From Moniliella sp. 'wahieum' (taxonomy: Eukaryota): 64,000 bases of DNA. Each line of letters starts with the position of its first letter. Position 1 is the first letter of the stretch. The position numbers and the translations under genes are program-made. This document shows, piece after piece, positions 2,667 through 44,463 of the stretch. The stretch spans positions 496,001 to 560,000 of the forward strand of contig RSEE01000040.1 in assembly GCA_003971905.1 (NCBI GenBank), given 5' to 3'. The notes beneath the pieces were generated by a model. It saw only the letters and a list, made by a program, of their open reading frames with translations, searched no databases and was not told the DNA's origin.

Positions 2667-4834
2667 TGAGAAAAGTCGTCAAGATACACACAAGATGCAC
2701 CTGCATCCAAAGGGGGTGTAGTTCCACGCTTTAGTGGCATCGGTAATAGTCCAGTTCCCTTCAGTGCATACCTTTCTATTGTCCCTCATGCAGTCTCCAG
2801 CCTCTGCAGTAGCTCATGTGTAAAGCAATCAATGTTCATCGTGTTCAACTACCATCTGGAATTGTGAATTCCAACAGGTTATTGAGCCGGATTCTTCCTC
2901 TTGAGCGCCTGCGCATGCCTGCGACAAGATCAACAACAGGAACAACGCAATACCCCGATGACATTGTTTGGCGGATTTCGCTCCCATTTCCAATTCGTTC
3001 GAAGCGCCTCGCTCTCCTCTTCTTCTTCTCCCCTTCGCACAGTGTCCTCTGCTCTTGCTTCTTCCGTACCAACGATTGATACATTCATTACCATTGGCCT
3101 ATTAGTTTCGCCTTAGCACCTACTGTGACACCCGTAGGATGGCTAGTAGTTACTTGGTATACTTGCCGTGGGTATCTCCGACCAAATCTATTTCTCAAGC
3201 GCATATGTCAATGCACCACGCGCCACTACATATCATCGCAATCATCGATTGACCACTTTTCTGAGATCTCATTGCAATGAGATTAGATCGATGATCTCGA
3301 TGATCTCGATGATCGCGCTGACAAGTTCTACTCCTATAAATTTACTTCCCGTTGTGATAAACAAGCGCCAAGCTCCAGATCGCTTGGAAGGGAAACGACT
3401 TTCCGTATATGATTCCCCGCCGGCGCATGCCAATGTGGCAAAACTTCCGAACCAAGGAGCTGTATGTGATGCGTGACGGGGTTCCACGGCACATGTGATG
3501 AATCATGCATTGGGCTATTGCCCCATGCGACATGCATGTGACACGTGATCGCGTGCGCGCGACCCCGGGACAGGAACTGGTATATTGTAACGGAGAACGT
3601 CGTGAAGTTGTGAACGACTGAGGTACTGAGAGGCGCAATTAGTAGTTAGTGCCCAGCACTGGACGCTGAACACGTCGACGCGCTGACGTTGAAGCACTGA
3701 ACGTAACGCTGAACTTCAGCGTTGAACGTGTTGAATGTAGTGGACATTGAACGCTCATTGAAGCTTGAAGGTTGAATATTGAATCCCTCACGTTCATCCG
3801 TTTCCGTATAGCCATCGATGGATTGATTATGCGATGAGTTCCGAGCCGGTAGTGGCCTTCAGCGGTTAGCGTCTCCAGCGCCACCCAAAGGATCAGTACT
3901 CAAAGTTTCAACTGAGGATGGCGACGCCAATGATGAGGTCTAACGCGTCCGCCACAGGAAAAAACGATGGATGAAACGCGGTTATATCTTCTTTTTCACA
4001 TCAGGCTGTGATCAATCTAATGGTCATCGCATTGAAGCTGAGCGCGCTGAGCGCGCTGAGCCTCAGCCGTTGACAGATTGAGTAGAAAGATCGACATGTG
4101 CCACTGAGCTCAGTCGGTCCGGCCGGTCATCGATCATCGGTCACCTGCAATTGGGCTGGAAATCGACAGAGGAAAAGCGATGAGGTGCTGTTAAGCGTCG
4201 AGGGAAACCCGATTGACATATTCGATGTGGGGCATCATGCATCATGCATCGTACACGCGCGTACACAGGATCCGCTCACCCATCCTCGAGTCGAAACTCA
4301 CCGGTGAGGCTCATCGCTCACCCATGCCGGACCCTGCGGCAACCCCGCATGAGGCATGCTCCAGTACTAAGGATTGGGCCCCATTACCGCCGCGATAACA
4401 CACTCTTCACGTTGCCTATGCCAAGTCCGACACCCACAGCACTTGGCACTTGGCGGTCGCCGAGGGTTCGTAGTCCTAGTCAGAATCGGCCGCAGTACCA
4501 GTCGAGATCTGAGACTAGAGATGCTCTCGTCACATAATATGAAATGGCATCCTGTTCGGTGTGCGTATCCACCCCAATGTTGCCTTTCGTGTGTGGTTCC
4601 TGCTAGACCTGACTAAGACCAGCGATTTCCCAGGAACGATGACAAAAAAATCAACGATGGCAAATGCTGGGTTCTACACGTTACAACGTTACAATACTAC
4701 CCATGCTATTACTTGGGTTACTGGAGCGTTTTGCCCGACTCATAACCACCACCATCTCACAACAGCTCGACACATACCTTCACCGCATCGTTTGAGCCTG
4801 TTGTTCGTATCGGGTGGGGGACTCCAACACAACC

Positions 4835-12888: not shown

Positions 12889-14250
12889 TCACCCCAACTT
12901 GTTGGCCTTCTTTGCTAACGAGTCAACCACGTCGCCCACATGCTTGAGGGTCTGTAGCGCAGCCTCGTATGTCTTGTCCTGTGGTGCCTCGTCAAAGACA
13001 ACCAGACACCCATTCCCTTGGTCCAAGATCCCATTGAACATCTTGTCCAAGATCATCTGCGACAGTTTTTGCTCCACCTCCCGCTCGGGCTGACGCACCC
13101 GTTGCGCCACATATCCAATCTCCACCCGCGAGTAGGGCTCAATCACTCGTAGCAAGTTCTGCTCCAGCAACGTGTCGTACAGCTCGGCGAGGTGATTGCG
13201 AATGATCGGATCATTGGACAGTTCCGCTTGGTACTTCTTCAATGCGGTTTCAAATGCCTCCAACGACCGTTCTTCGTGTGCCTTGGCCACGGCCGACATG
13301 GCCTCCACATCCCGCTCTGTCGCCTTCTCCACCGCAGCACCCTTGGCGCCCCATCCCTTGGCTCCCTTGACCGCCTTGGATTCGGCCACCAATGCCGTCT
13401 TGCCTTGGATAATCGCCGCCACATCCTCCGGCAGGTTAAGCATAATTTTACACAGCAGCATGTACTTGAGCGCCAGCCCTGCCCGCGGATCGTTCTGCCC
13501 AGAGAAGCCCTCCAGGGTTTCGAAAAAGTATGAGTAGGCAGTCGAGTAATCCTTGTCTTTCGCATGCAACACACCACTTTGGAGATCCAGTTGTGCCTGC
13601 AGCAAAGGCGGCGTGTACATCGCGTTGGCCGACGTACGAGCCGAAGTGAGGGCTGTCTTTGCCTTGGGGATGTTGGAAATGGCAAAGTTGACCTTCGATT
13701 CCAACAGGTGAACCTCAGTCAGGATCATCTTGTCATCCAGCTTCTTCAGTTCCTTGAGCAGTCGCTCAATTAACGGAAGCGCCTGACGGTAGTTTTTCGC
13801 CTCGTAGTACAGCGAAATCAGCTTGGTCTCAAGACTCTGCTTGAGGAAAATCCGTTTTTCCTCCTTGGCCCAGTCAATGTTTTCCTCGGTAATCCGGATC
13901 TGGGCAGCGCGGGCTGCATCGCCAGGAATGTCGCCAAACAGGTCAATGAGCTGGCGGATAGTTTTGCCGTCTTGGCCTTTGCCAGGTGTGCAAGTACAGC
14001 ATGCGAGTCGCGCACAACGCTTGCCAACGCATCCACGTCGGCCTCGTCGCAGTACAGCTGGCCAAGACGGAGAAGAGCGAGTTCCTGCTCCCAGCACGGC
14101 CTCGCCGGTGGCCGAAGACGCCTTGTCGGCCGGCGGCTGTTGCGCGAGCACAGCCTTGAGCTGCGCCTCGCCCCCGGCGCGGTCTCCGGCTTCAAACGCA
14201 GTTTCGGCAGAGGCGACGGAAGGCAAGGTGCCGGATGCGGGGGTGGCCAT
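12889..14250 (-). CDS. RPN6: 26S proteasome lid subunit Rpn6 (PSMD11)
   Basis: KAKTAK, EEKRIFLKQSLE, LKELKKLDDKMILTEVHLLESK, LDLQSGVLHA.DKDY.TAYSYFFE, LLEQNLLRVIEPYSRVEI; frameshifts in the 5' part. Confidence 0.95.
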   Translation of the reverse strand: MATPASGTLPSVASAETAFEAGDRAGGEAQLKAVLAQQPPADKASSATGEAVLGAGTRSSPSWPAVLRRGRRGCVGKRCARLACCTCTPGKGQDGKTIRQLIDLFGDIPGDAARAAQIRITEENIDWAKEEKRIFLKQSLETKLISLYYEAKNYRQALPLIERLLKELKKLDDKMILTEVHLLESKVNFAISNIPKAKTALTSARTSANAMYTPPLLQAQLDLQSGVLHAKDKDYSTAYSYFFETLEGFSGQNDPRAGLALKYMLLCKIMLNLPEDVAAIIQGKTALVAESKAVKGAKGWGAKGAAVEKATERDVEAMSAVAKAHEERSLEAFETALKKYQAELSNDPIIRNHLAELYDTLLEQNLLRVIEPYSRVEIGYVAQRVRQPEREVEQKLSQMILDKMFNGILDQGNGCLVVFDEAPQDKTYEAALQTLKHVGDVVDSLAKKANKLG

Positions 14251-14521
14251 GGTGGTGGGGGAGGCAGCAGCGGGGCCGAGCAGTGGGCCCAGCGCATCAG
14301 CCAATCGGGTGAGCCCTAGCCCACGCAACGAGTGGCCGCGTCACGCGGCCCACACTGGCGCCCCGCCGGCCGCCGCGATTCCGCCGGCGCGGATTCCGCG
14401 CCGCTGGCAGCAGCAGCAAGGACGCGTGTTGCTTGCCAGTGCTACGGGCCGTGCACGGGCCGGACGAGGGTAGGTATACCCGTCGCAGCCGCCCGCGCTC
14501 GCCCCCACCACCATCGTCATC
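14251..14521. promoter_or_regulatory. Putative bidirectional promoter between RPN6 and RPN7
   Basis: 271 bp between divergent ATGs; contains the 17-bp dyad GGCCGCGT-C-ACGCGGCC at 14334-14350. Confidence 0.6.
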
Positions 14522-15797
14522 ATGTCCGCCGACGAGGAGAGCATCCAGCCCATCCCCAACCTGCACTGGCAGCAGCTTCTCTTCACTGTCGTCACGGTGG
14601 GTATGCGGCTGCGCCCTCGTCTGCGCTCGCTGCTTCGGAGCTGCTCGCTGGCATCGAGGCCGACGAAATGGCACCCTACTATGCTGCTTTGCTCGCCGAC
14701 CCGCTCATCAGCAAGAAGTTGCCTTCTCCGGTAGAGAGCACCAGTGCCCACCACGCGTCTTCGCCTCAAGATCTGCTGGCCAAACTCGAGGAGCGGAACA
14801 AGGAGGAGCTCGCCAAGTTTGATCAGCAGCTTACCAAGGCCACCGAGGAGGAGGGCGAGATGGAGATCAACGCGGTGCTTAAGAACAAGGCGAGCTACTA
14901 TGCCAAGATCGGGGACCAAGTATGTGCATTCCTTTTTCCCTCTTTTTTCTCTTGGTTGCTGACTCGTCCCCTCTGCAGGACAAGGCGATTGCTACTACCA
15001 AGGAGGCCATCGAAAAGGGCGCTGGGCTCGGCAGCAAAATCGACTTGACTCTCGGCCTGATCCGCATCGGGTTCTTCTTTGGAAACACGTCACTTGTTAC
15101 CTCCTCGATTACAGAGGTTAAAAAGTTGGTTGAGGAGGGGGGCGACTGGGACCGGCGGAACCGGCTGAAGGTGTACGAGGGGCTCCACCTCCTCTCCGTT
15201 CGGGACTTTAAGCGGGGCGGAGAGCTGTTCCTCGAGGCTCTCTCCACGTTTACCGCCACCGAGCTGCTGGACTACCATGCGTTCGTGTCGCTGGCTGTGA
15301 TTGCAAATATGCTCGCATTGCCGCGGACCGAGCTGAAGAAGAAGATTCTGAATGCGCCCGAGGTGCTGCAAGTGATTGACGAGCTGCCGCATTTGAGGAC
15401 CTACACCCAATCCTTGTACAATGGCAATTACAAGGCCTTTTTCGAAGCGCTGGCCCAGGTCGAACAGACCTACCTCCTTCCCTCGCGCCTTCTCAATGCC
15501 CACGCACGCTACTACGTACGGGAAATGCGCATCATTGCGTATGCCCAACTACTCGAGTCCTACCGCTCCGTCACGTTGCGATCCATGGCGGATGCATTTG
15601 GGGTAACGGACGAATTTATTGACCGCGAGTTGTCCCGGTTCATTGCGTCGGCACGGCTGCCCGCAGTGATTGACAAGGTGCACGGCGTGATTGAGACCCG
15701 GCGGCCCGATTCCAAGAACGCACAGTACAACCAGATCATCAAGGATGGCGATGTGCTCCTGAACCAACTGCAGAAGCTGTCGCGGACAGCACTCTGA
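14522..15797 (+). CDS. RPN7: 26S proteasome lid subunit Rpn7 (PSMD6); intron about 14920-14979
   Basis: EMAPYY, EEGGDWDRRNRLKVYEG, STFTATEL, RYYVREMRIIAYAQLLESYRS, IETRRPDSKNAQY. Confidence 0.95.
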
Positions 15798-27670: not shown

Positions 27671-31628
<3,958 letters not shown>

Positions 31629-32000: not shown

Positions 32001-32230
32001 CTGGTAATAGCAGGAAATAGCAGGAAACGGCAGGAAACGGCCGGAAACGGCAGGAAACGGCCGGAAACGGCTGGAAACGGCCGGAAACGGCAGGAAACGG
32101 CCGGAAACGGCAGGAAACGGCCGGAAACGGCAGGAAACGGCCGGAAACGGCCGGAAATGGCCGGAAACGACAGGAAACGACAGGAAATGACTGGAAACCA
32201 CTGGAAACCACTGGAAACAGCTGGAAACCC
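32001..32230. repeat. 10-bp tandem minisatellite, consensus C(A/C/T)GGAAACGG, about 23 units
   Basis: caggaaacgg ccggaaacgg alternating, with degenerate units at both ends. Confidence 0.95.
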
Positions 32231-34315: not shown

Positions 34316-34407
34316 GTGACTAGGTGACTAGTGACTAGTGACTAGTGACTGACTAGTGACCAGTGCGGCCGGTGACCGGTGACATGGTGACATGTGACAT
34401 TGACATG
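34316..34407. repeat. 7-bp palindrome-spacer cluster (ACTAGT, ACCGGT, ACATGT cores)
   Basis: gtgactagtgactagtgactagtgac ... ccggtgaccggtgacatggtgacatgtgacat. Confidence 0.85.
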
Positions 34408-38250: not shown

Positions 38251-38335
<85 letters not shown>

Positions 38336-38362
38336 CTGTTGCTGTTGCTGTTGCTGTTGCTG

Positions 38363-38443
<81 letters not shown>

Positions 38444-38450
38444 GTTGCTG
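38251..38450. repeat. (CTGTTG)n / (CAACAG)n hexanucleotide microsatellite, about 33 units
   Basis: About 200 bp of tgctgt repeats with three 1-2 nt interruptions. Confidence 0.97.
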
Positions 38451-40411
38451 TCAGATCTGTGCAATCGCCTCCGCCATGCGCATGACGACCAGTCGTGCCG
38501 ACGGATGGCCGCTCCAATCCTTGCTCCTGGTACTGCCGTTTGTAGGCAGAGTGAGTGGGTCATTGCTAATCTCAAATTCGCACTTCGTTCCTTCCCATAG
38601 CATCTGTCCCAGCTCCAGACTGGGATGGAAACCCGATCAGTGACCCTCCTGGATGCGCGACAGGGAGCAAATGGCTGAGGTGTTAGGTGCATGCACGTAC
38701 CGCTCAGCGGCAAGGGTGAGAGGGTCGCGTAACAAAGACACTGCCTTGAGTCGATCGAGGCGGGTCAACGGCAGCCACGCCGTCGGCGACGGAACGTGGT
38801 TGGAGGTGTGGTTGCCTTGCACCTGAGCCGGAGTGGGCGCGTCGGCGCGGCGTAGGCCGAGCCAGTGCACAGTCTGTGCCGTGCCAAGATGAGAACGGTA
38901 CACGCGCACAATGTCTAGCCCGTGGGGATCGCCATCGGTCAACGCAAAAGTGGGAGCGCTATCGGCCGAAGAATCGAGAATATAATACACACAAAAGCAA
39001 TGGAGGCATTCAGTACTCAGACGTTCTCATCACCCCACGTAGGGTCTGGGAGAGAAGGTACACTGACCACGGGAAGGTAGTCTGTAGGTTGGCAAGAAAA
39101 GCACGAGCTGCCAAGTCTGGGTACCCTCGTCCCTATATATACACAACATCGAATGCAAAGGTCAGGCGTCACCGTATACTTACGCGGCACGGTCAGTCTC
39201 GAGGGGGAGGGGGGAATAATGGGTATATGCATACAGTGAGAATGGCGCCGGGGCCAAGGAGACCTGGCACGCCAGCCGCCAGGCGGGTCTCGGCCATGGT
39301 GTGGAAAACAGCTTCCTTCTCGATGACCAAGATCCATTCGATGGGCGCCCAGGCTTCCAAATGGGAAATGGCGCCATCATCTGGGATCAAGGCCGGCGCG
39401 GGAAGATAGACTTCAGCTGGAAGGAGGGGATCCGGGACGGTGTTGAGGTGGCAGGGGGGTAGGGGTGCATTTATTCGCGGGCCGAGGGGAACGATGTGGA
39501 CTGGCCCGTGGAACAGACTTTTCGGGGCGGCCACCACGCCCAGCGCGGGGCGCTGCACCTGGAAGGCCACTTGAAGATGCTGGACGATGCGTTCAACAGT
39601 GCGTTGGTTGCCAAATAGGGGAACATCCGAATAGAACAGATCACGGATAGTAATGCTCATCCCTCGGCAGAGGCTGTTGTGAATCTCCTTGAGTACAGCT
39701 ACCCAACGTGCTGCAAATGAGTAAATCGATGCAGCCGCGGAAGCGATCGGCGGATGATGTGGGAGTGGACCATATACGTCAGTCATATCTGTTCTGTCGG
39801 CATGCGGTATGGGCTTCTCTTGCAGCGCTGGATGGATGGCGTGGATGGATGGCGTGGAGTCAGCTGGGAAGGAGGGAGCGACACGTACCGAGCTTCACTT
39901 GCCCTTGGGCGCTGTTGTGGAATAGACCTAGCGCGACCTGGTGAGGCCCGGGAGTTCCACTGTACCGCGGGCAAAGAGAAAAAGAGACACAGGAGTCAGT
40001 ATGCGCCCCGATGAATCCAGTTCTCGTCTTGTGCGTGACAGGAGAGATTACGGTGTGGATGCAGGCGGGCAGGTACAAAGGGGCCACACAGTTCCCACGA
40101 TAGCATCTCAGGAGGAAGGATACCCACAGGATCAAGGTCACTTGACGTCGTGGGGCAACGGCGTGATCCGAGGGAGGTGCTCCTGGAGGGGCATTTTGGA
40201 GCTGGTAGAGCTGGCGCATGAATGCACGCCACGAGGAGGTGAGCAAACGCAAGACCCGTCGTTGCTCGTGAGCAAGCTGCTGCTGTTTGGTAGCAGCTGT
40301 GGCTGGTGTGGTCAGTGCTTGAGGTGCTGCTCGGTCGGTGGCATTCATCTGCATCCAAGGGGTCGCGTGGGTGTCGGTGGAACAGCGGGCTGGGCTAGCA
40401 GATGCATGCAT
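38451..40411 (-). CDS. SPO11: Meiotic topoisomerase-VI-A-like endonuclease Spo11; several introns
   Basis: TIRDLFYSDVPLFGNQRTV (catalytic Tyr), LGVVAAPKSLF, ILVIEKEAVF, GYPDL, LTDGDPHGLDI (Toprim DxD), ELGQML..TKCEFE; stop TGA at 38453-38451. The start is uncertain. Confidence 0.9.
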
Positions 40412-41674
40412 CAGTGTTCTGTGGTGCAATGCTTTACGTGATACGAAAACATGTAGGGTTCCCACCCGCAAGCAACCCTCCGTTAGACAGGGATAGTGGA
40501 ATTGTAGGACACACATGCAGACCAGAACGCAGGTAAGACACAGCAGAGTCTTTATAATACGAGCGACAGCGAATGTGTTGAAGAGATGGAGGAGGAGTAT
40601 CGATGAGTTGAAGCGAAGTGCGAGATACAGGTGGTGGCAAGGCAAAGCCAGAGGCGTAAGTTGTGTTACAAGAACAAAGTAAACCTACTTTTGAATAGAT
40701 AGTTATACTCTGAACTGAAGAAGACCTAATAGCTCCCACCACGTTGGAACAGACTGATATACGGATGAAGCTGCTAGGTGATCACATAAGGTCACGGTGA
40801 CCCTTCTCTCACTACCACGGCAACCTCTTCTACCAGTTGTCATGCACAACTCTTCAATGCTGGGGCGCTGGGGCAATGCGCCAATCATTAATCACGCCTC
40901 TCATCTCCTGCGCGTGTTGATAATATAAGCATCATCACCCCTCTTATCCTCGCGGACGCTCCTCTGCTCTTCGGCGGTACCCTCTCTGCTTGGAGCCACA
41001 TCCTTTATTCTCCTTCTTCGGCATACAAAACTCTTTTCCGGCCTGAGCGCCATGAGCACCTGAGCACCCTCCGCTATGCAACAAAAACGCTATACTTTTT
41101 TTGCTCTCCGCCAGCGCTCAACAGAGCTCAGGGAAGAAGGGTTTTTGTTCGATATTACCACAGGATTGCTATACAAGATCCCTCTCTATAGATGCAACGC
41201 TCGTTAAGACGTGATCGTGCGATTGTGCAAGATAAGAACATCATCCAGTAGCACTTCCTCGAAAGGGAATTGTCCGAGAGATAACTTCTGGTAAGCGCAG
41301 AGAGGCTATCACATATCATCGATGAATCACATCGACATCGACAATCGACGGCCATTGATAATCACATCGATCATCCCGAAGTCTAGTATATAGTACCCAA
41401 GTACTCAAGCCCTCGGGAAACCTCAGGCTAGCCACTAATAATGATCCTGGTGACCCAGCGACGTCCTAAGTGCAGTTATGCAATGGCAGAGAGAAGACAG
41501 GAGCTGGGTTGAACCCAGACTGAGGATCAGAAGAAGAAGGAGATGAAGGAGAAGAAGGAGAAGAAAGGAGAGCGGCACTAGGCCAGGGGATAGGGATACT
41601 GGTGTGATGCCCGGATGAGTAAGATGGTCAGGAGTGCCGCGGAGGTGGCTGGCCCATAGGACCCTGGTCAACAA

Positions 41675-42215
41675 CTAAGCCTTAGGCTTAAGCCGCTAAG
41701 CCTTATGGGCCTAAGCCTTAGGCCTTAGGCCGCCACAGGCTTTTGGCTTGAGGCCAAGGGCCTAACGCTAGTGACATTGTTGTGACATATATGTGACATG
41801 TGACACGGCAACATGCAACATGTAGCACTAATAGTGACTAGTGACTAGTGATGCATGGTGCATCTTGCAAGTGATGCGCGATGGGTGACATGTGACACAT
41901 GTGGCTTGGTCCGAGTGCGTTGTACGTTGTTCGGGTTAGTGCGGCTTAAAGCTTAAAGCTTAACACCCGTTACGCGCTGCTAATTACTAGTTACTAGTTG
42001 CTAGCTATGCTAGTTCCTCGCGTTGAGTCACTATGTTTGCGTGTGGGGTATCGTTGCTACACGTGCGTTAGGCCTGACATCCCCTCAGGCCTGAGGGATA
42101 GCTGAGGGATAGACGTTAGGAGCCTTTTTGTAGGAGGCAGCAGTGAGAGACAGTAGGACATATCCTCTGCGCCCCCCGCGGATGTTCTGTCACATGTCAC
42201 ATGTCAACGTTCAAC
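41675..42215. repeat. Dense cluster of 7-bp palindrome-spacer arrays (AGGCCT, ACATGT, ACTAGT, ATGCAT, AAGCTT, AACGTT cores)
   Basis: ccttaggccttaggcc; gtgacatgtgac; gtgactagtgactagtgatgcatg; cttaaagcttaaagctt; ttactagttactagtt; ccctcaggcctgaggg; tcacatgtcacatgtcaacgttca. Confidence 0.85.
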
Positions 42216-43064
42216 CACGAAGACAAGACATTACTATTAGGTACAAGTTCGTAGTTACTCGTTTTATTACCAGAGTTATTATAGTTCCCTGCTTTTTTGC
42301 GTGGCTGGCGGGCTGGGATAGGGAATGGATACTAGTGCAGGTGCCAACATAGTCGGACTCGGCGCTCTCACATCTCTGCTACTTCCACCCACAGTCTGTT
42401 ATTGCACCCGCAGGCTCCGTCTGGCACTCCGTGCTCCTTCTCAGATCTCATCTCCCATTTCCGCCTCTCCACATTCGTTCAGTTGGGAACTGGAGGATCG
42501 GATCCCAGACTTGCAGCTGGTAGTGAATTGCATTGCCCCTGTCCTGCCTTCCAGGAAGGAATACCTGAAGCTCTGAAGGAAGACACCGAAAGAACAGGGT
42601 TTGGGCTACCAGTGTCACCATGCCACTACGCCAGTGTGACGCCACATGCACCGCACTCAGCCTGAGCGAGGAGGCACGATCACCCGTCGCCGGTCACAAA
42701 CATCCACTATCCAATAGTCAATAGTTCAATGCATCATGCATCATGTCCATCGATGCTCGAGATGATCTCCGACCCCTTGCTCCTGGTTCATGATTTTGCC
42801 GCTTCGGTCTAATTACCTTCTGGGGGTCTGGCAGTCAGAGTCATCGATTATCTTTAACGAGAGGCCGCGGCCAAATATGTTCGGCTGGCCCTTAGGAGGT
42901 TAGGCCGGTTAGGCCTTAGGCCTTTTCAAGTAAGGCCTCCTCCTGGAGCATCCCGGAAAAGTTCCGCATCCCACAGCCACCATTCTCGCTCCCGCGGATC
43001 TGCTGGAACGCGCCACAGAGGTATGGGTTACCACTTTTCGTGATCCCCTCAGAAGGTTGACGCG

Positions 43065-43330
43065 TTGAACGTTGACGATCGAGATGATCGATCATGATGA
43101 TCGATGATCCGATCTATGCTAGTCACGCGTCACGCGTCACGCGCCACGAGGCTTCAAGCTTCAAGCTTCAAGCTTCACGCACTTCATGCTTCAAGCTTCA
43201 AACTAGCTTCAAGCTTCAAACTAGCTTCAAGCTTCAAACTAGCTTCAAGCTTCAAACTAGCTTCAAGCTTCAAACTAGCTTCAAGCTTCAAGCTTCAAGC
43301 TCTTCAAGCTTCATGCACTTCATGCCGCTC
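43065..43330. repeat. 7-bp palindrome-spacer arrays plus five copies of the 18-bp unit GCTTCAAGCTTCAAACTA (43188-43277)
   Basis: tgacgcgttgaacgttga; tgatcgatcatgatgatcgatga; tcacgcgtcacgcgtcacgcg; (gcttcaa)n. Confidence 0.9.
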
Positions 43331-44463
43331 AGGCGAGTCCTCAGTACCTCAGTGAAGCTTGAAGCCTCAGGTCATAACTCTACCCCAAGCCTCGAGCCCC
43401 TGAGACCCTCCTGAGGCCTGAGGCCCAGTACTAAGTACTAATCGTTGAGATCCTCAGGTCCTCAGGCGCAGGGGTGCCGAGCCGCTGAGGAGAGCCGCTC
43501 CGAGTAACGGGGCTGTATTATACTCTCTGTCTGGATCCCCACCTGGGCGAAGTACGGAATAATATACGTACTGGATCGGCGGGGTTAATTGTTGAAGCAG
43601 GAGGTTGTCAAGGTTTTTGCCTGAGCCTTTTCAGTTTCTTGAAGCCGCCGGCGTCGGCTCCGCGGACTATGTTGCACTCATGTCGATACATACAGAGGGT
43701 CGATGTGCGACAGAGGCTTCTGTGAAGGTGAGGCGTGAAATGTGAGATCTGAGATCTGATATTTGAAGCGTGTAATTGCGATCGGGGTGTATACGCCGGC
43801 CTGGATGCGCTCCACCAAAAGCTTCACGAGCGGGCGCAGGTCGGCGCTCGCCCCCACCAGTGTGGCAGGCAGCGGCGATACGTAGCACACGTTAGCACGA
43901 CCCACAGGGTCTGGGGCTTGGCGGCTGCAACGTCGAGGACGTTGAGGCCTGAGGGTGGCACCTCTGTGGCTCCCTGTCGCCACTGACTAATGGATGCGGC
44001 CACCGAAGGCTCGCTCAAGGCGTCAGTACTCAGTACCGCCAGTACTCGGCCTCAGTACTCGATGTCCTCTCTCAATCTCGAAGCCAGGCCTCAAGCTCTC
44101 ACGCAATAAGCCGGGGATAACGAGTACCTAGCAACTGATGGTAAGTAGGGCTGGTAACCTACAAGACGGGAGCGAACTGGTCACTGACTAAGAATATCAT
44201 GCATCAAACTTACACAGCTTACTCTTCTGCGCTCTCTTCTCCGTTTCACGACCATTGGGATCCTCTCGTCGGGGGCTAACGTTAAAACTCGCTCTCCTCA
44301 TCGACGACCCCCTTTACCCTTCCCAACCACCCCCACCAACCCTCCACGCTCCTCGACGACAAGTCCTAAACACACCACCTCATCACGATCCCTCTCTCCA
44401 CATATCCAGTTCTTTCTACCTCCAGCCCCGGCCCCTGCCTCTCCCTCTTCCCGTTCCTGCACC

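Follow-up and report, generated by a model that had tools for sequence, protein, structure and literature searches.

How can a tandem array change its palindromic core and still hold exactly the same 7-bp register? This question is raised by a short array at 42188..42215 in the 64,000-nucleotide stretch of Moniliella sp. 'wahieum' DNA analyzed here (the window; G000:C40:496001-560000, in an assembly of 69.5 Mb and 223 contigs). The array reads TG-TCA-CA / TG-TCA-CA / TG-TCA-AC / GT-TCA-AC, in which we recognize two left-type scars, an original site, and one right-type scar. A sequence-only reading of the window had pointed to this array and three others (its strings start at 42190, 41835, 3759, and 34374) as runs of concatenated palindromes. 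All four strings are present at these positions, although one of the proposed cores, AAGGTT (3768-3773), is not a palindrome but lies one substitution off AAGCTT.

The window carries fungal housekeeping genes, and the best named relatives of its RPN6 gene belong to Ustilaginomycotina (Tilletiaria, 65%). The region is found in four copies: contigs C40 and C7 are ~93% identical, C30 and C49 are ~92% identical, and identity between the two pairs is 65-83% in matching stretches. Judged by sequence, these four homeologous copies, arranged as two pairs, could mean that the assembly is hybrid or polyploid, or that it mixes haplotypes.

We find that the motif TSA-N4-TSA occurs 137 times in the window, against 51.8 times in 60 local shuffles. 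With a palindromic core it occurs 85 times, against 3.5 in shuffled sequence. The triplet-plus-palindrome build accounts for 39/53 exact 7-bp tandem runs in the window, compared with 10% of random heptamers. One 18-letter version of an array has 511 matches in the genome, while its reversed control has none. In a 534-kb sample (C40 with 264 kb, window included, C30 with 70 kb, and twenty stretches of 10 kb each), ~400 arrays occur above chance, which extrapolates to roughly 50,000 in the assembly, the sample being non-random. Analogues with period 5 or period 9 (2- or 6-bp palindromic cores) are at or near chance (194 versus 221.5 and 20 versus 15.5, respectively). Within the window, the units concentrate in an intergenic hot spot at 41680..44100, with 36 T-N-A/palindrome/T-N-A units per 169 T-N-A triplets, compared with 82 per 2226 in the whole window; 27 units lie between 42 and 44 kb.

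If different palindromes are joined in phase, unlike neighbors should peak at a spacing of exactly 7 bp. Counted over all palindromes, as the sequence-only reading had framed the test, they do not: heterotypic pairs in the window number 21 at lag 7 (17.9 ± 6.1 shuffled), compared with 17 at lag 6, 28 at lag 8, and 25 at lag 9, and the 534-kb sample has 149 at lag 7 against 126.8 ± 13.1 shuffled, without a 7-bp peak. A peak does appear in the sample when the test is limited to palindromes of the form A-NNNN-T, with 39 pairs at lag 7 and 3, 8, 9, and 6 at lags 6, 8, 9, and 10 (3.5 ± 1.3 shuffled). The same limited test in the window alone gives 2 pairs at lag 7 and 0, 3, and 2 at lags 6, 8, and 9, counts too few for a peak.

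The cores follow a simple flank rule. Each unit consists of a duplication of up to 7 bp, centered on T-N-A, plus 2 mirror bases; at a site xy-TSA-uv, left cores read y'x'xy and right cores read uvv'u'. The cores thus mirror either the left or the right flank pair, and mixed cores require no coordinated mutations. Moving from one core to another had been thought to take 2-4 coordinated changes. This is not so, as each core is newly written from the flank of one original xy-TSA-uv.

Several counts from the 534-kb sample define this rule. The arrangement xyTNA-y'x'-xyTNA is found 289 times, against 3.5 in shuffled sequence (non-palindromic sites only). Duplicated bases beyond xyTNA number one in 55 cases and two in 33, and three, four, and five in only 3, 2, and 1; the collapse past two further bases indicates that the duplication ends at 7 bp. 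When palindromic sites are counted too, the mirror point lies 2 nt from T-N-A in 581 cases; distances of 1 and 3 nt account for only 26 and 22. A 7-bp copy, 2 mirror bases, and a second 7-bp copy follow one another 114 times, against 6 in shuffled sequence; at 8 bp, T-N-A occupies positions 3-5 in only 3/33. Among single units, 271/338 match at least one flank and 67/338 match neither, against 16.5 by chance. Of 185 single events, 83% have C or G as the center base, and all 16 flank dinucleotides occur.

Unambiguous joints in the sample fall into few classes. Most carry a single 4-nt palindrome (86 and 100). Plain 7-bp duplications number 36 (against 1.2), joints of +8 bp number 11 and 8, and those of +9 bp number 11 and 9. 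Joints with both palindromes whole number zero.

Mixed arrays make up 19 of the 78 multi-unit arrays (0.2 shuffled). Each of them combines two core types with a single switch; only 10 of the 19 have at least three cores and are thus able to switch twice. Both flanks fit in 10 of these arrays, one flank in 6, and neither in 3. A single switch is expected from stacking on a single site, because all other heptamers of an array are palindromic and have the same core on either side.

Comparison of the window with its sister copy on C7 shows how individual arrays differ. At the focal site, C7 has only ...CTG TCA ACCAC, and the window is longer by a single 21-bp indel. The heptamer TG-TCA-AC at 42202..42208 is identical to this empty allele, and we infer that it is the original 7-bp target. 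Its left pair would give the core CATG (two copies, y'x'xy), and its right pair the core ACGT (uvv'u'). A second mixed array, at 41833..41858, fits the site AG-TGA-TG, in which the left pair accounts for the CTAG cores and the right pair for a TGCA core. In the window the array closes, after TGCA, with the triplet TGG; C7 has an intact TGA at this position and is shorter by one CTAG unit. At 34371..34399, the site GG-TGA-CA is combined with a CCGG core (left pair), CATG cores (right pair), and one extra G, and a CTAG array lies directly upstream (34325-34348). In C7 the extra G is missing, the CTAG array is shorter by 21 bp, and another 7 bp are absent at the CCGG unit. The array at 3757..3784 (TGA AGCT TGA AGGT TGA ATAT TGA AT) has the same sequence in C7 and is evidently older. 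Its right core, ATAT, agrees with the right flank, while the left flank (AT) disagrees, and AGGT is one substitution off AGCT.

Indels between sister copies follow the same rule. We examined 1264 pure indels within 256 kb of exact-match chains, as length differences in which gain and loss look alike. A 7-bp duplication plus 2 mirror bases, with one palindrome whole, fits 16/34 indels of 7 bp (12 of them TNA-centered), 6/11 of 8 bp, and 2/8 of 9 bp, compared with 5/58 at 4-6 bp and 0/11 at 10-13 bp. In empty alleles such as AC-TCA-TA and AG-TAA-GG, the mirror bases are absent, appearing only in the longer allele. Four 7-bp events and one 8-bp event between sister copies obey the mirror rule at the near-miss centers CAA, CCA, and GGA, and the T of T-N-A is thus not absolute.

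We propose that the arrays are very probably stacked excision footprints of a cut-and-paste DNA transposon, likely the CTCACTG...CAGTGAG family described below or its relatives. Insertion would take place at xy-TSA-uv (S being C or G, less often A or T) with duplication of 7 bp, as is seen at surviving copies. At excision, the flanks would be sealed as hairpins flush with the element end. This step is suggested by RAG and Transib as analogues, and by the even palindrome, whose center falls exactly where the duplication ends. A host nuclease would then open each hairpin 2 nt past its tip, leaving 4-nt 3' overhangs, uvv'u' and y'x'xy. End joining would mostly retain one whole overhang and lose the other, which adds 7 bp and leaves a 4-bp palindrome between two TSA triplets; partial retention would give the +8 and +9 bp products that we observe. 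Each scar would remake TSA-centered targets, so that revisits in intergenic hot spots stack further units in phase, and slippage probably extends some same-core arrays. Since only the original site can yield both cores, an array should hold at most two core types and one switch, which is the pattern found.

The candidate element came to light by chance. The type copy (G000:C34:500340-505284) lies ~10 kb from a Transposase_21 locus on the same contig and is separate from it. It is 4945 bp long, with 78-bp inverted ends (90% identity) and tandem arrays inside both ends, and is flanked on either side by GT-TGA-TG. A genome search with the element end identified at least 17 places, and an 18th end lies in another stretch of the genome that was examined. 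All 18 ends begin with CTCACTG, and 17/18 stand directly against NN-TSA-NN. Perfect 7-bp duplications flank 5/7 two-ended copies: GTTGATG on C34 and C29, CATCAAC on C35, GATCATG on C23, and GATGATG around a 378-bp copy on C20. The element sites include C34:500333-505291, C35:43984-48853, C29:72151-77134, and C20:546804-547195. Independent element sites are TSA-centered in 12/12 cases, while TSA occupies 2.8% of positions. Over 2 kb, the copies on C34 and C11 share 99.3% identity, which indicates that the family moved recently.

A few copies depart from this pattern. The two-ended copies on C11 (G000:C11:228241-233089) and C38 (C38:472882) have unlike flanks, both TSA-centered, possibly as a result of adjacent deletions or inter-copy exchange. 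One end on C8 (G000:C8:478694) has two extra bases after GA-TGA-AG, whereas its twin site (G000:C23:153503) is flush. The extra bases could be mirror bases of the flank that were joined again to the element, or its end may have stuttered by 2 bp. The only sister flank available for an element-to-scar comparison (C8 against C23) is rearranged on its left side, which leaves the joint unreadable. The other end of the C66 copy is absent from the stretch examined. The element also carries two right-type units (L121:1166 and 1383), and seems to have been struck itself by the scar-forming process. Telomere-type repeats are found ~45 bp from the C29 copy (L131:1-14) and as single units inside the element (L121:921-958); on C149 they open the contig and recur where its truncated copy breaks off (L138:1-30 and ~392-405).

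The coding remnant of the element is split over three frames in both copies read. These two copies share their frame breaks and have no visible N-terminal catalytic part, and we found neither an autonomous copy nor an intact partner transposase. The element's own frames match no transposase family in Pfam, hAT included. Two weak database matches were obtained (E 3e-4 and 7e-4), one of which, P0121, aligns to the element in two stretches. P0121 in turn matches the frame adjoining the C34 Transposase_21 match (E 1e-16). In the Atlas, the element piece falls under the tool's recognition threshold and P0121 exceeds it; among the neighboring entries, 11-25% of members carry DUF4218, Transposase_21, or Plavaka, and other neighbors have no family. 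A metagenome scan with the element protein piece detected no relative, and word-index protein searches with this piece and with P0121 yielded nothing beyond these matches. Motifs resembling D, CxxC, E/DxxH, and E occur in order across the three frames, as they do at two Transposase_21 loci, although a second H and the first D were not located. These loci, C17:557095 (L116) and C34:514908 (L117), are the only two found by a genome search for Transposase_21; both have frame breaks, and a search for their ends and duplications found none.

Subterminal tandem repeats are a trait of EnSpm transposons, and the element has inverted ends with such repeats. We read the element, on weak homology, as non-autonomous and CMCT/EnSpm-like. 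Its ends are not CA..TG and its duplication is not 2-5 bp, and it is thus named CMCT-like rather than a member of EnSpm. EnSpm-type enzymes would, by analogy, form hairpins on the flanks.

The CMCT clade comprises EnSpm/CACTA, Plavaka, ESTA, Mirage, Chapaev, and Transib, and has motifs in common with Transib and RAG1 in the account of PMC12730594. The element resembles this clade in its inverted ends, in D-, CxxC-, H-, and E-like motifs in the same order, in weak homology to Transposase_21-associated proteins, and in CACTG 2 nt inside each end. It differs in its CT..AG ends and 7-bp NN-TSA-NN duplications, as the clade mostly has CA..TG ends and 2-5-bp duplications, again by the account of PMC12730594.

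The closest parallel for the joints is V(D)J recombination. In vitro, Artemis:DNA-PKcs is described as opening RAG hairpins mainly at +2, to give 4-nt 3' overhangs (PMC2175297). P nucleotides in V(D)J joints, like the products of Transib, resemble the scars in the even palindrome at the break, the main opening 2 nt past the tip, and the joining of trimmed ends. In the fungal arrays, however, a 7-bp target duplication places one copy on each side of the joint, a single overhang is usually retained in full, and the products are genome-wide and heritable. Transib itself is reported to be absent from fungi (PMC5751038), and the statement of flank hairpins in PMC5499845 names hAT, Transib, RAG, and MULE only.

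Other precedents concern footprints as such. Hairpin footprints are already textbook knowledge (PMC5873905), and duplications left by excision have been proposed before as seeds of tandem repeats (PMC9659126). In Ustilago maydis, "10-bp repeats" have been suggested to be transposon footprints (cited in PMC4081816). Like the units described here, they are small dispersed repeats of a smut lineage read as footprints, and TSA-N4-TSA is also 10 bp long, a comparison by length and description rather than by sequence. A term search of PMC4824034 found no mention of them. In the openly readable text that was searched, with the supplement of PMC12730594 covered by term only, we found neither an account of the array grammar nor any CMCT element described with duplications of 7 bp. 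A matching family could already be in print.

If the scars are excision footprints of a flank-hairpin transposase, each joint should be bordered by a target duplication of fixed length, should carry P bases copied from the flank, and should have a counterpart in a resident element with matching duplication length and target. All three are found here. The family of 4.9-kb CTCACTG...CAGTGAG elements, or relatives with the same kind of CMCT/EnSpm-like transposase, is the likely maker of the scars, to judge from these sequence features. We lean, with some reserve, to a broader view: that a CT..AG-ended CMCT-type lineage with 7-bp NN-TSA-NN duplications, as yet undescribed, has moved in and out of intergenic DNA on tens of thousands of occasions while its copy number stayed at a handful, writing palindromic heptamer arrays that propagate themselves.

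The footprint mechanism could be correct and the agent different. Other lost or undetected elements with 7-bp duplications (sister CMCT families, hAT7, or Kyakuja) might have made the scars, a reading that overlaps with ours in everything but the agent and that we regard as possible but tentative. Surviving copies show a narrower flank bias than the scars, with TGA-TG at 7/12 sites compared with 41/277 (p=0.0006), so that either other families or a retention bias must be invoked. The two Transposase_21 loci, with ends not found, offer further candidates. In addition, hAT7 and Kyakuja make 7-bp duplications in basidiomycete hosts (PMC12730594). Their transposases are of other kinds; Kyakuja has CA..TG ends without inverted repeats, whereas the element here has long inverted repeats and CT..AG ends, and one hAT7 consensus starts with CAACGG, in a comparison of transposases, ends, and duplication lengths. 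No hAT (PF05699), KDZ (PF18758), MULE, or PIF domain was matched in genome searches, although the hAT domain was not matched in control genomes either and the KDZ search had no positive control, so that for these two absence is not implied. A hAT agent of the Ac/Ds type would also be expected to leave other joints. Ac/Ds excision does produce hairpin-derived palindromic insertions, with short deletions, at the donor site, and short palindromes dominate in Candida albicans, but as PMC5873905 describes it, the palindrome is centered on the complement of the element-adjoining base and the hAT duplication is usually 8 bp, whereas the joints here are even palindromes with 7 bp. The family that we found already agrees in duplication length and in its TSA center.

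A host process without any element is unlikely. In such a process, the DNA would be nicked 2 nt 5' of T-N-A, the strand displaced, and the growing end folded back onto the 5' end of the flap and ligated; this would likewise predict exactly 2 mirror bases and a direct copy. Such a process would also suit the excess of scars, extrapolated to tens of thousands against about 18 element ends. Furthermore, the large indels between sister copies (9 pure and 39 complex) contained no inverted-repeat element with a 7-bp duplication, being mostly LTR-like or unresolved, and a search of 974 kb (partly redundant) for inverted ends with flanking duplications returned only the arrays themselves and chance pairs. 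The host process nevertheless leaves the hard stop at 7 bp and the left-right symmetry unexplained, demands a T-N-A nickase that is not known, and has to contend with an element in the same genome that makes the predicted duplication.

We consider it very unlikely that the arrays arose by ordinary 7-bp slippage and point mutation, with mixed cores as chance neighbors. Same-core pairs at lag 7 (132 in the 534-kb sample) do far exceed the mixed A-NNNN-T pairs, plain 7-bp duplications are enriched, and short alleles might be deletions between repeats. Some long arrays resemble the products of slippage, such as the AGCT-core array at 43151..43313, which has grown as an 18-bp higher-order repeat (a 118-bp indel relative to C7), probably by secondary slippage or unequal exchange. 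Slippage likely caused the length of such arrays. It cannot, however, make the first unit, as the empty alleles gain mirror bases that are new to the site, and it does not explain why units center on T-N-A, why joints of +8 and +9 bp occur, or why every mixed array switches just once. This bears out the earlier conclusion that plain slippage is insufficient. Among arrays with identical triplets, 7/48 two-unit arrays and 8/13 three-unit arrays are mixed, where a revisit-only model (our own arithmetic) gives 25% and 38%; slippage is thus not required, and is still compatible. As an origin it is contradicted by the flank rule, and as a secondary process it is plausible, having probably lengthened same-core arrays further.

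Selection for TGA/TCA half-sites with 7-bp spacing and symmetric spacers, as protein-binding sites, is the least credible reading: the units are intergenic and clustered and avoid coding stretches (0/82, though the 11.1 kb of listed coding sequence holds 369/2226 T-N-A triplets), but this avoidance follows from the frameshift that a 7-bp insertion causes, every flank dinucleotide is in use, sister copies of 93% identity differ in the presence of whole arrays, and selection would not yield the flank rule. The arrays vary freely between sister copies, and of the "constraint or generative mechanism" first suggested for them, the generative part, tied to symmetry and T-S-A, stands, while a constraint on palindromes is unneeded. 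We also rejected a 3-bp T-N-A duplication with two element bases retained per end, in the style of Tc1 or PIF; the cores track host flanks in all their dinucleotides, and the element's own ends could give CTAG alone.

We thus consider the pattern real and largely explained by stacked excision footprints. The odd repeat grammar can now be treated as a mechanism open to test, and a candidate agent can be named. If this mechanism is correct, the CMCT clade would be widened to 7-bp duplications and CT..AG ends, and there would be in vivo evidence that an EnSpm-like transposase cuts as RAG and Transib do. The arrays would then record, across the genome, how an EnSpm-like enzyme forms flush hairpins and how a fungus opens hairpins and joins ends, and they would continually supply new promoter sequence. 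Transposon traffic would, by this route, build tandem repeats without leaving any element sequence. With thousands of natural repair products, the arrays would also allow the opening of hairpins and the joining of ends to be studied in a basidiomycete. When repeats are annotated or motifs sought in this lineage, such scars could otherwise be taken for binding sites.

The neighborhood of the focal array contains other features of interest. A 235-bp dispersed repeat with TA...CA ends lies at 41439..41673 (+), has a 5-bp duplication (ACTAA), is missing from C7, and has 43 matches in the genome, most copies with 5-bp duplications; by its sequence, we read it as a solo LTR. It was ruled out as the source of the palindrome arrays, since duplications of 5 bp make it unrelated. 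A gene with a TP6A_N domain (SPO11-like; 39193-39786, minus strand) lies ~2.4 kb from the focal array. Elsewhere in the window, the proteasome lid genes RPN6 and RPN7 are arranged head to head (12889-15797), as are a beta-adaptin-like gene and a TIP49 gene near 28590-30959. The window also has ordinary long tandem arrays, TGCTGT x34 (38251-38451) and GGAAACGGCC x20 (32010-32228), both of which differ in length from their counterparts in C7.
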